This document shows positions 28,565-48,990 of a DNA stretch of 64,000 nucleotides, piece after piece. Every line of letters starts with the position of its first letter. Positions within the stretch are counted from its first letter, which is position 1. This stretch comes from a virus. Its lineage: Duplodnaviria > Caudoviricetes. The notes beneath the pieces were generated by a model that saw nothing but the letters and a program-made list of their open reading frames with translations, had not been told where the DNA came from and made no database searches. The stretch spans positions 29,325 to 93,324 of IMG/VR virus record IMGVR_UViG_3300032138_000006. One strand, 5' to 3'. The position numbers and the translations under genes are program-made.

Positions 28565-31755
<3,191 letters not shown>

Positions 31756-31766
31756 ACAGGGGGCAT

Positions 31767-31775
31767 ACTATTTAG
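31767..31775 (+). promoter_or_regulatory. Putative late promoter ACTATTTAG
   Basis: Recurrent motif. Confidence 0.5.
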
Positions 31776-31800
31776 TGTATCCAAGGAGAGGCGCCATAGC

Positions 31801-32136
31801 ATGTCAGACAACCCTACCCATATAAAGAGAAAGCTGGACCCAACAATAACAGCGCACATCTTAGATCTCACAAATAAGATTGACATATTGATCGAATCAC
31901 ACAGGGTATTAACTGAAAGTGTCGACAAGATCAAAGAGGCAATTTACCACCCAGACGAGGGGATTTACTCCCGCATTCGTGAAGTGGAGCGAGAGGTTAT
32001 TAAAGACGGCGATATCCGAATTGCTAAGCTTGAAGAAACGATGGAAGCCGTAAAGAGGCTTCAGTGGCTGGTTATTGGTTCTGGTACCGCAGCTATTATA
32101 AGTGTTATTTTTAGAACTTTCGTTATGAATGGATAA
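31801..32136 (+). CDS. Coiled-coil protein with C-terminal TM helix (XhlA/holin-like architecture)
   Basis: Heptad region followed by WLVIGSGTAAIISVIF. Confidence 0.5.
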   Translation: MSDNPTHIKRKLDPTITAHILDLTNKIDILIESHRVLTESVDKIKEAIYHPDEGIYSRIREVEREVIKDGDIRIAKLEETMEAVKRLQWLVIGSGTAAIISVIFRTFVMNG

Positions 32137-32146
32137 AAAATAAAGC

Positions 32147-32258
32147 TTGACTCCCCGATGAAGTCCCTATATACTAATAGACAGGTTGACAAGGAAAATA
32201 AAAAAAATGCAAAAAGAAGCGTTTTTTCCTTGACAAATAGGTAGAATGCTGCTATTCT
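32147..32258 (+). promoter_or_regulatory. Tandem sigma70-type promoters
   Basis: TTGACT-17-TATACT (32147-32175) and TTGACA-17-TATTCT with TG (32230-32258). Confidence 0.75.
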
Positions 32259-32289
32259 ACTTATGTATTGATGGTTGATAGGGAGACCA

Positions 32290-32943
32290 ATGAGCTACTA
32301 CCGAAATTATCGTCGCAACAGTTACCCGCCAGTGGAGCGCGTGACGGATGAGACTATCGCCCCTCGGCTTAAGACTTTGCTTGAAAACGGCAATGTTCCG
32401 GCAAACACTGTTGACTTTCTTCAATCGCTCGTTGAGGCGAACGAGAAGTATTCAGGCTTGACCTCTCGTCAAGCTGATGCTCTCAAGAAGGTTGAGCAGC
32501 GTTTTTCTACTGAAGCTATCGCCCACCGCAAGGCTTGGGCTGGTGAATATAGTGAAGAGCGCCGAGCCGCGGCTAAGATTTGTGCTGAGTACTACCTCGC
32601 CAATCCTCCCTACTATCGTGACCTTGCGGAAAAGGTCTTGAACGATCCAGAATTCGTTCCTACTGAACGTCAATGGCGTGCTTTGTGTGAAAACAAGTAT
32701 GCAAAGAAGGTCCTCGTGGCTACTCGCGCCGAACCTAAGTACCCTGTTGGGTCTATGGTTATGGGACGCGCCAATGCTGGACGTCAGGTTCAAAATCGCC
32801 TCTTGGTTGTTATTGAAACCGACGCAGAGCCTGTGACTAAGGCTGCGAAGGGAACTAAGGTCTATCGCGTGCTCCCCGTGGGAAGTCCGTCGACCCTACT
32901 TGTTGAAGAGCGCGACATTAAAAAGTCGAAAAAAGCAGCGTAA
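32290..32943 (+). CDS. Early hypothetical protein with C-terminal SH3-like domain
   Basis: GGGAG RBS; PKYPVGSMV...LLVEERDIKK. Confidence 0.6.
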   Translation: MSYYRNYRRNSYPPVERVTDETIAPRLKTLLENGNVPANTVDFLQSLVEANEKYSGLTSRQADALKKVEQRFSTEAIAHRKAWAGEYSEERRAAAKICAEYYLANPPYYRDLAEKVLNDPEFVPTERQWRALCENKYAKKVLVATRAEPKYPVGSMVMGRANAGRQVQNRLLVVIETDAEPVTKAAKGTKVYRVLPVGSPSTLLVEERDIKKSKKAA

Positions 32944-42812: not shown

Positions 42813-42863
42813 ACTGTAGCTCTCTACTTAATCCAAGCGATTAAATGTGGAGGAACACATGCT

Positions 42864-43013
42864 GTGGAATATTTTGTTATATCATCTGGTTGCCCCGAAT
42901 TATATAAAGAAGTGACAAAAATCATTGAGGATTGGGGCGTCTCGCACCGAATCAAGGTCGTCAAAAGTGTCGCCGTCATCGACAATCAACAAAAAAAAAT
43001 AAAAAACGCATAA
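42864..43013 (+). CDS. Small hypothetical protein (49 aa)
   Basis: GTG start after GGAGGA; MEYFVISSGCPELYKEV... Confidence 0.4.
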   Translation: MEYFVISSGCPELYKEVTKIIEDWGVSHRIKVVKSVAVIDNQQKKIKNA

Positions 43014-43114
43014 GAAAACCTCTTTTAGTATCCCTTTGGTGTTATTTACTTTAGACGGGCTTCACGCCGGTCGTTTAAAGCAATGAGATAAACCCACCCC
43101 AAAGGAGATCCGCA

Positions 43115-47627: not shown

Positions 47628-48110
47628 GTGAGATTATACGAGCTTGGGATAACTATCCAGATATTACTTGCTGTTATATATGCCAACTTATTTGAGTGGG
47701 TGATACATAAATACATCTTGCACGATCTTGGCAAGAAGAAAAACTTCCTTCGCTTTCACTGGTCTCACCACCAATCCACTCGTAAATCAGGCGGCTATGA
47801 CCTTGACTACAAAACTCTATTCCCACTATCAAAAGAAGCCATCGCGCTTCTTTTTTCGTTTGCACTCCATATTCCCTTATTTTGGTACTATCCGTATTTC
47901 GCCGGTGCACTGGGAGTGTATGCTCTTGCTTACTTCGTTGTACATCGCAAGGCACATTTAGATCCAGACTGGGGACGCAAATGGATCCCTTGGCACTTCG
48001 ACCACCACATGGGCAAGAACCAAGATTTAAATTGGTGTGTGCTGTTCCCTCTGTGGGATCATATCTTGGGTACCAGAAAAAAATATAAAATAAATGAAAA
48101 AAAGACTTGA
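47628..48110 (+). CDS. Fatty acid hydroxylase/sterol desaturase family protein
   Basis: HKYILH, HWSHH, HRKAH, HFDHH, WDHILGT. Confidence 0.85.
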   Translation: MRLYELGITIQILLAVIYANLFEWVIHKYILHDLGKKKNFLRFHWSHHQSTRKSGGYDLDYKTLFPLSKEAIALLFSFALHIPLFWYYPYFAGALGVYALAYFVVHRKAHLDPDWGRKWIPWHFDHHMGKNQDLNWCVLFPLWDHILGTRKKYKINEKKT

Positions 48111-48135
48111 CTTTCTTATCAAGTTATGGTCTAAT
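48107..48135 (+). promoter_or_regulatory. Sigma70-type promoter driving a non-coding unit
   Basis: TTGACT-17-TCTAAT with extended TG. Confidence 0.65.
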
Positions 48136-48143
48136 GTATATGT

Positions 48144-48215
48144 AAGTTGGTTGAGGGAAGTTAACTTCTGGTTGAAACAACGCTCAACAACTCAGCCAGC
48201 TTCGTTCTTTTAAAA
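48144..48215 (+). promoter_or_regulatory. Leader hairpin plus boxA-like antitermination sequence
   Basis: 12 bp stem AAGTTGGTTGAG/CTCAGCCAGCTT followed by GTTCTTTTAAAA. Confidence 0.5.
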
Positions 48216-48223
48216 ATAGGTAC

Positions 48224-48551
48224 GATGAAGCAACAGGACGGCAATCTTGTGGGCTTGAGCAATAAGGATAGAGGGCGGTTGCCGCCGTCTGATGAAATAA
48301 GATATCCTGCTTGGGGCGTTCGAATCCCCCCATCTCATTTATGGTCGCGCCAATCGGTAGTCATGTAGGGTCACGAGCGAAAGCCTTGACTGATGAGTGG
48401 GTGTTATGCCGCCCTCCCGCGACCATTTCTTATGTGGGAGACACGAGCCAGAGTTTGGCAGTAGGTGAGGGTTAATGACCAATGCTGTCTTCGTGGTTGC
48501 GTAAGCGTTTTAGGTCGTGTCTAGCGTGGAGAAGCTGGGAACTCCACGCAT
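48224..48551 (+). ncRNA. Cluster of three structured, partly tRNA-like RNA domains of unknown class
   Basis: No + strand ORF of 60 aa or more; closing stems GATG/CATC, ATGGTCGCG/CGCGACCAT and AGACACGA/TCGTGTCT; GTTCGAATC T-loop. Confidence 0.6.
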
Positions 48552-48558
48552 TTTTTTT
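48524..48558 (+). terminator. Intrinsic terminator
   Basis: GCGTGGAG/CTCCACGC stem followed by A and T8. Confidence 0.7.
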
Positions 48559-48568
48559 GAAATATTTC

Positions 48569-48597
48569 TTGACAATCATTCTACACTATGCTACATT
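48569..48597 (+). promoter_or_regulatory. Sigma70-type promoter
   Basis: TTGACA-17-TACATT with extended TG. Confidence 0.75.
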
Positions 48598-48630
48598 GGC
48601 CATGTAAGATAAAGAAATTTAGGAGACATT

Positions 48631-48990
48631 ATGCCAGCACTTCCCATCTTTGATAAAGGCTTCACTCAGGAGGAAATCGAATTCGGTTTTCAGAAGTTTG
48701 TTGAAGGTGTTCAGCAGATCACTGCCGAGCATTACGCAACACAATTCCCTAATCTGAAGCCCAATGAGGTCCGCGTCGACGCTGGTCGTGTTTACTGGAA
48801 GCTCGTTAAGCACACTCCCGGTGACAAGTATGGCACCAGCGTTCATTGCTTTGTTCGCAAGGCAGACGGAGCGATCCTCAAGTCTGCAAGCTGGAAGGCT
48901 CCAGCCCTGAACCACCCTCGTGGTTTTGTCACCGATTCCGATTACGGTCTGCACTGTGCGAACTCATACGGGGTTGCTTACCTGCGATAA
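48631..48990 (+). CDS. Conserved early phage protein
   Basis: SVHCFV...G.ILKSASWKAPA...RG motif, common in large phages. Confidence 0.7.
   Translation: MPALPIFDKGFTQEEIEFGFQKFVEGVQQITAEHYATQFPNLKPNEVRVDAGRVYWKLVKHTPGDKYGTSVHCFVRKADGAILKSASWKAPALNHPRGFVTDSDYGLHCANSYGVAYLR

Follow-up and report, generated by a model that had tools for sequence, protein, structure and literature searches.

The segment at positions 48107-48558 on the + strand is probably, taking the whole explanation developed below together, a protein-free early transcription unit, a small stable-RNA operon, of a large uncultured T4-like phage. The 3' part of this unit is a member of an RNA family that is widespread, strongly conserved and present in no catalogue or paper searched. 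The window, which is the whole stretch of 64,000 nt that was analysed, corresponds to the final 64 kb of an IMG/VR virus record that is 93 kb long and about 51% complete. All window genes are on the + strand, and they encode, among others, DnaE, UvsX, a DnaB-type helicase, ribonucleotide reductase, GroEL, ClpX, ThyX, a GH25 lysin and a Dam methylase. The closest cultured-phage match to the window has less than 30% identity. The RNA unit is flanked by a fatty-acid-hydroxylase-family gene (47628-48110) on the 5' side and a DUF7717 gene (48631-48990) on the 3' side. Two close relatives of the unit are used for comparison throughout: L008, from a 189.7-kb genome that is 100% complete according to CheckV and whose flanking proteins are 75-95% identical to those of the window, and L236, a metagenome contig with a flanking protein 90% identical to its window counterpart.

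An earlier sequence-only reading of this DNA had described a self-contained non-coding unit with an rrn-like hairpin and boxA leader and no canonical tRNA, located in the longest ORF-free stretch of about 520 nt. This overall description is supported. Positions 48111-48630 (520 nt) form the longest gap in the window without a + strand ORF of at least 60 aa; the second-longest gap without + strand ORFs is located at 42813-43114 (302 nt). Two small ORFs in the gap, of 47 and 54 aa, were rejected as genes, as their ribosome-binding sites are not conserved and they are missing from L008 and L236. Explanation of the region as coding or as a known RNA was likewise dropped, with no gap ORF of at least 60 aa and no tRNA or Rfam match. 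The predicted folding energy of the region is -140 kcal/mol for the + strand vs -113 kcal/mol for the - strand. The following features have been assigned:

48107-48135, + strand: sigma-70-type promoter, with -35 TTGACT at 48107-48112, a 17-nt spacer and the extended -10 TGgTCTAAT at 48127-48135
48144-48202, + strand: leader stem, 48144-48155 pairing with 48191-48202 (12 bp, 2 G-U)
48156-48169 and 48171-48188, + strand: inner hairpins of the leader, from the MFE fold
48204-48215, + strand: boxA-like GTTCTTTTAAAA, candidate NusB/NusE site, matching 10/11 positions of GYTCTTTAANA
48233-48253, + strand: small hairpin ACAGGA/TCTTGT, then GCAATCTTGTGGG, from comparison with L008 (...GGTGCTGCAATCTGTGGGGGACAC) and the fold
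48261-48340, + strand: degenerate tRNA-like cloverleaf, with T-arm GGGCG-TTCGAAT-CCCCC at 48314-48330 and anticodon-like loop AUGAAAU
48341-48426, + strand: domain 2, a tRNA-shaped 86-nt RNA closed by the helix ATGGTCGCG/CGCGACCAT, with one arm capped by GAAA and another, of 5 bp, close to where a T-arm would be
48434-48551 (118 nt), + strand: member of the conserved phage RNA family (model R1, 96.1 bits, E = 2e-18)
48434-48438, + strand: 5' tail GUGGG of the family RNA
48439-48446 with 48515-48522, + strand: helix P1 of the family RNA
48447-48497, + strand: P2, with base GCCA-GAG pairing with UUC-g-UGGU
48498-48507, + strand: P3 mini-hairpin UGC-GUAA-GCG of the family RNA
48512-48514, + strand: AGG, invariant in the family
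48524-48531 with 48542-48549, + strand: P5, with the tRNA D-loop-like loop AAGCUGGGAA
48524-48558, + strand: intrinsic terminator, consisting of the 8-bp P5 hairpin GCGTGGAG/CTCCACGC with a 10-nt loop, then A and U8
48569-48597, + strand: separate consensus promoter of the DUF7717 gene

The conserved RNA at the 3' end of the unit was recognized through its homologs. The 16-mer GTGGYTGCGTAAGCGT, common to the window and contig L123, drew 75 IMG/VR stretches, about 36 of which are true homologs, and the family RNA is found in about 35 IMG/VR or metagenome contigs. The covariance model R1 was built from 32 homologs on the aligned family structure, and its search gave 40 matches with E from 5e-27 to 4e-6. 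The window match spans model positions 1-131; the window sequence was in the R1 seed, and the window RNA also folds to the consensus by itself, the MFE fold of 48434-48551 alone being the family consensus. Family members are 105-190 nt long, with a P1 of 8-9 bp, a P5 of 7-8 bp with loop A-AGYUGGGA-A, and an optional P4 hairpin, while P2 combines an invariant ACCA:UGGU base with at least four different distal hairpins. The invariants GUGGG, ACCA:UGGU, UGC-GNRA-GCG and AGG are all carried by the window.

The structure of this RNA is supported by covariation. RNAalifold on the aligned family recovered P1, the P2 base and P3. In the re-aligned R1 set, pairing in P1 reaches 99.3%, compensatory changes are seen at 8/8 pairs of P1 and 7/8 pairs of P5; the observed values were reached by 0/500 shuffles, and sliding the partner columns gave 32-49% pairing vs 91% unslid. 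Between the window and L008, P1 shows both G-C to A-U and A-U to G-C swaps. A whole-transcript MFE pairing of 48217-48231 with the 3' strand of P1 was dropped, as it conflicts with the covarying P1. Since the window fold equals the consensus and both P1 and P5 covary, the third folded domain and the terminator are one RNA. The terminator hairpin had previously been treated as an element separate from the folded domains, and the family covariation identifies it instead as P5 of the conserved RNA; its position at 48524-48558 was correctly given. A mutual-information scan for a pseudoknot yielded nothing beyond the known helices. The only member without a GUAA tetraloop is L008, which has GGAA together with a CC:GG step changed to CG:CG, a single event; a scan for further non-GUAA variants gave no new members among the matches listed. 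The invariant CC:GG step may serve as a docking site of the GUAA tetraloop; the two are changed together in L008.

The expectation that the unit is processed into several ncRNAs, formed by three separately closed domains, has been borne out in part. The third domain (48439-48522) is a covarying domain closed by P1 and, joined with the terminator hairpin, is the one RNA with evolutionary support; the covariation among homologs that had been proposed as a check concerns this part only. Domains 1 and 2 have no such support, and their folds are no more stable than those of shuffled sequences. Domain 1 (48224-48334) has z = -0.72 and a 4-bp closure, which is not above chance by itself, is missing from both L008 and L236, and is not one RNA; it combines the small hairpin and a truncated GTGGG with a tRNA-like cloverleaf that has decayed. 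The hairpin segment at 48233-48253 is the counterpart of the pre-RNA hairpin of L008 plus the first five bases of the family RNA. Within it, 48241-48253 (GCAATCTTGTGGG) matches GCAATCTGTGGGGG of L008, which in L008 continues directly into P1. In the window, it is separated by 180 nt of unrelated sequence from a second GTGGG, with which the actual RNA opens. The segment thus looks like the scar of a recombination at GTGGG. The cloverleaf at 48261-48340 has a canonical T-loop with a poor acceptor and D-arm. ARAGORN does not report it at default and draws it, as 'tRNA-Phe(gaa)', only when the threshold is lowered to 80%. It is probably a decayed tRNA gene. Domain 2 (z = -1.36) has an identical copy directly 3' of boxA in L236, the sole other contig in which it is known, and therefore no covariation is available for it. 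No further copies of domain 2 were found in IMG/VR (chance coding matches or none), nor were homologs of the cloverleaf, and neither domain 1 nor domain 2 matched any other collected locus by BLAST or nhmmer.

The close relatives indicate which part of the unit is constant. L008 shares the promoter, leader start, boxA-like element and terminator with the window; its unit is about 130 nt shorter, and it has an extra ORF between the RNA unit and the DUF7717 gene. In L236, the order is leader, boxA, domain 2 and 3' RNA, without domain 1, and the 3' RNA is identical to that of the window up to P5. Three different cargos are thus present upstream of the same RNA in three phages with 82-90% identical flanking proteins, and three cargos with one constant RNA in near-identical backgrounds indicate that the 3' RNA is the functional core. 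By the same comparison, the pieces between boxA and the 3' RNA appear to be lineage-specific cargo with fast turnover.

No known RNA accounts for the unit. Over the whole window, Rfam gave no match at the gathering threshold; when the cut-off was relaxed to E = 10 for the region, the sole match was a C/D-box of 9.5 bits (E = 9.1), which was treated as noise. The absence of a canonical tRNA was confirmed with ARAGORN, which found 0 tRNAs in the region at default and none in tmRNA mode, and with RF00005, which had no match in the region at E = 10 or better. The family RNA has no match in Rfam 15. BLAST against 50,697 cultured-phage records gave no match to the whole unit, and none was accepted for family members; a 28-nt match in Xanthomonas phage RTH11 was rejected because it sits inside a giant CDS. 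The invariant 14-15-mers are absent from the literature searched, which leaves aside the unnamed candidates of an IMG/VR structured-RNA survey (PMC10690425).

The family RNA occurs in a recurrent genomic context. In L149, L173 and L198, tRNA-Arg(UCU) ends 1-3 nt ahead of the RNA, and in L154, L157 and L173, tRNA-Lys or tRNA-Met begins 1-4 nt past it. This position flush against tRNA ends makes cutting into discrete stable RNAs plausible; judging from its placement, the family RNA appears to behave as a discrete gene product, probably released by tRNA-processing enzymes. U-runs follow P5 in the members that end a unit and are absent where a tRNA follows. In other contigs (L123, L146, L151, L143 and L188), the RNA comes directly after an ORF stop codon. 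The RNA is single-copy in 5/5 records searched, including complete genomes of 190 kb and 293 kb and the 93-kb record of the window. The tRNA model RF00005 found no tRNA gene in the complete 190-kb genome or in the window's 93-kb record, and retention of the RNA by a complete 190-kb phage without tRNA genes indicates a role separate from phage tRNA supply. Among 185,579 prokaryote genomes, only one family match was found, on a MAG contig also carrying four tRNAs. This contig (L206; PBLX01000048.1, 'Legionellales bacterium' MAG, 84.5 kb), with a 105-bit family member, probably derives from a phage and entered the bacterial MAG through binning.

Other arrangements have been observed around the RNA. 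In three relatives (L196:2026-5133, L168 and L155), the RNA unit is located immediately 3' of a GroEL gene. In the window (30169-32943), the equivalent post-GroEL spot is occupied by a 111-aa ORF and a promoter, with the RNA unit 16 kb off, which indicates that the gene moved within a syntenic region. A second recurrent structured RNA is present directly upstream of the family RNA in L154:2090-2237, L162:2270-2419 and L131:7260-7407, with the long closing helix GGTGGGA.TCGGCAGTC ... GACGGA.TCCCACC. In L162 and L157, another RNA occupies the gap of about 430 nt between tRNA-Arg(UCU) and the family RNA. In L138 (13020-13243), the RNA that precedes the family member has a tRNA-like T-arm and GCGCGCCA at its end and has been likened to T4 rnaC; ARAGORN detected no tRNA and no tmRNA in it.

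The 5' end of the unit consists of a promoter and a structured leader. The promoter had been placed correctly, as read from the sequence: the -10 hexamer TCTAAT lies at 48130-48135, the 17-nt spacer includes the TG, and the probable transcription start is near 48142-48144. A consensus scanner missed this promoter since it demands an A at -10 position 2, and missed the terminator since its loop limit is 8 nt and the actual loop is 10 nt. The window promoter has 92% identity with that of the homologous L008 unit, and the promoter class TTGACTTT...TATATGTAAGTTGGTTGAG drives many genes of related contigs. The 12-bp leader stem with its two internal hairpins was confirmed as the MFE fold (z = -3.97; 0/200 shuffles as stable). 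The leader 3' arms differ between the window (CTCAGCCAGCTT), L008 (CTCTTAACCGCTT) and L236 (CTCTCAGTCACTT). G-C/G-U and U-A/U-G exchanges keep each of them paired with the 5' arm, which is constant, and this pattern fits selection on RNA and not on DNA.

The leader 5' arm is not specific to this unit, as TATATGTAAGTTGGTTGAG starts many mRNAs of the phage group; it is a piece of a promoter and initial-transcript consensus common to many protein-coding genes. In a 14-mer scan of the leader, almost all matches were due to chance, and 16-mer and 19-mer scans revealed this shared consensus. It can be written as TTGACTTTT-N17-...TATATGTAAGTTGGTTGAGAGAAGGAG (window 48136-48156; L223-L235), is found group-wide, and usually leads into a ribosome-binding site with an ORF. 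The AAGUUGG that it contains recurs as the core of tRNA D-loops and of the P5 loop in the family RNA.

The boxA-like element following the leader stem is present at 48204-48215, as first noted, and its 10/11 match is to a consensus taken from PMC5725501. GTTCTTTTAAAA is the sole + strand site in the window with at most 1 mismatch to the boxA pattern used. At up to 2 mismatches, 39 matches are present in the window vs 27 expected; the string by itself is thus not rare, and its support comes from comparison with other phages. In 5/35 members vs 0.5 expected (p = 1e-4), the core G[CT]TCTTT lies at most 60 nt ahead of the family RNA, and it follows a hairpin in every near-upstream case (L155, L136, L168 and L008). 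The order of hairpin then boxA is seen ahead of the same RNA in five other contigs (these four and L236), with the boxA-like sequences CGCTCTTTTCAAAA in L008 and CGTTCTTTGAATATT in L236; in the window and L236, boxA lies farther upstream because cargo is inserted between. L123 has the same promoter and first 17 transcribed bases, then two small translated ORFs and the family RNA, and no boxA, as a role in protection from Rho predicts for a unit with translated ORFs. boxA was also not found in two short promoter-driven members, L196 and L177, and is therefore not universal among family units. Overall, the comparison suggests that the boxA leader is conserved in function, beyond sequence alone. 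NusB/NusE binding to boxA is established (PMC3177189), and the Nus complex is able to block Rho, with aid to RNA folding as its main effect (PMC5725501). By analogy, this role would carry over to the phage unit.

Together, these observations suggest the following mechanism. A host-type extended -10 promoter would start a transcript of about 415 nt, whose 12-bp stem and boxA most likely load the host NusB/NusE-Nus complex onto RNA polymerase; this would shield the untranslated RNA from Rho and aid its folding. The conserved payload would be the last 118 nt, comprising the GUGGG tail, the junction closed by P1 with the invariant ACCA:UGGU, the GUAA-capped mini-hairpin and a final D-loop-like hairpin that would double as terminator in the window. 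tRNA-processing nucleases probably free this RNA as a discrete stable RNA. It could then act in trans on a conserved partner with a link to tRNA or translation, using invariant bases in loops and single strands, with the tail, the GUAA loop and the D-loop-like P5 loop as tentative contact sites. Processing sites, Nus binding and trans action are all predicted from the comparisons above. Against the stable-RNA operon stand the commonness of the boxA string, the lack of boxA in L196 and L177 and the lack of covariation support for domains 1 and 2, and against a trans-acting RNA stand the members right after ORF stop codons (L123, L146 and L151), which a cis-acting 3'-end role explains equally well.

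Such a cis-acting 3'-end module, in which a structured cap and terminator would stabilize or define the 3' end of whatever transcript lies upstream, is the main rival explanation, although an unlikely one. It is consistent with the elements that end units with a U-run after P5 (window, L008, L236, L140, L176 and L178) and with those directly past ORF stop codons in L123, L146, L151, L143 and L188, but the RNA is also internal in tRNA arrays, with no U-run and a tRNA immediately after it (L154, L157 and L173). Moreover, the units of the window, L008, L155 and L168 have nothing upstream to stabilize except the leader, and about 20 invariant junction bases exceed the needs of a protective hairpin. 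Less likely still, the unit is the inert remainder of a tRNA array that has decayed and happens to have kept a promoter and a terminator. The two tRNA-shaped but non-canonical elements, the lack of tRNA genes in the window's genome and its complete relative, and the true tRNAs at the equivalent place in relatives all fit decay, whereas the structure of the 3' RNA is strongly selected for in about 35 contigs, a complete tRNA-less genome retains a single copy, and promoter, leader pairing and boxA are all kept among the three relatives.

It is very unlikely that the conserved RNA is a self-cleaving ribozyme freeing itself from adjacent tRNAs or mRNAs. A junction-rich fold, invariant unpaired bases and a location at processing boundaries would suit one, and CUGAUGA and GAAA strings are present in domains 1 and 2, but these strings fall outside the conserved RNA, Rfam ribozyme models give no match with a cut-off as loose as E = 10, and the adjoining tRNA ends already account for release. 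A hammerhead was rejected because GAAA precedes CUGAUGA by 7 nt, an order and spacing incompatible with the hammerhead core. The least probable explanation, which we regard as highly improbable, is a leader or riboswitch controlling the downstream DUF7717 gene. Although the region lies upstream of this gene in the window and L008, a strong terminator intervenes, and the gene has its own promoter at 48569-48597, so the RNA unit is not its leader; in L008 an additional ORF lies between, and the downstream genes in other members are unrelated.

The operon reading that we prefer has parallels in known systems. The T4 RNAs rnaC (139 nt) and rnaD (119 nt), or species 1 and 2, are, like the family RNA, discrete structured RNAs that adjoin phage tRNAs directly and are co-transcribed with them. 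In T4, tRNA-Arg(UCU) is directly followed by rnaD and then rnaC, and the family RNA has the same slot in L149, L173 and L198; in contrast, the window unit belongs to a genome without tRNAs and stands alone with its own promoter and boxA. T4 rnaC also ends in a tRNA-like T-arm, as does the decayed element of the window at 48314-48330. No likeness of the family RNA to the rnaC and rnaD sequences was detected, and R1 with filters off gave at best 6.5 bits (E = 0.57) in the T4 tRNA region, with a tRNA D-arm aligned to P5. The T4 parallel is positional, and homology to rnaC or rnaD was detected in neither sequence nor structure. To our knowledge, the function of these long-known stable non-tRNA RNAs of a phage tRNA operon has never been established.

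Like the phage unit, the leader of rrn operons (boxB hairpin, boxA, boxC) has a promoter-proximal hairpin followed by a GYTCTTT-type boxA, and in both cases the transcript that the leader opens is untranslated and highly structured (PMC5725501, PMC3177189). The phage cargo differs in being a few hundred nt of phage RNA and not rRNA, with Nus binding as a prediction, and no boxC or leader-trailer helix was identified in the phage unit. The lambda nut sites also have a phage boxA beside a hairpin; however, in these boxA comes before boxB, N is required and mRNA operons are antiterminated, whereas the phage unit has a hairpin and then boxA, and no N-like gene was identified. GOLLD and ROOL (RF02032, RF03087) are, like the family RNA, phage-borne structured RNAs often adjoining tRNA genes, but they are 500-800 nt long and present in Rfam, in contrast to the 105-190 nt of the family RNA.

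A more specific function can be proposed with little confidence. The conserved RNA could be a phage decoy or sensor of the tRNA world that binds, titrates or senses a host factor directed at tRNAs, for example a defence nuclease that cleaves them, an enzyme that processes or modifies them, or uncharged tRNA; we consider this doubtful. It is based on the terminal hairpin, which copies a tRNA D-loop, and on the core, in which an internal ACCA is paired to UGGU. The T-box reads the tRNA 3' end by ACCA:UGGU-type pairing. If true, this function would explain why exactly one copy is kept even by tRNA-less phages.

Being widespread, short, strongly constrained and single-copy, the family RNA offers a better handle on the question of T4-type stable RNAs, and it is small enough for structure probing, pull-downs, cryo-EM or crystallography. 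The unit also suggests that large phages apply an rrn-style hairpin-boxA signal to their own untranslated RNA operons, a predicted use of Nus factors that would be distinct from the lambda N paradigm.
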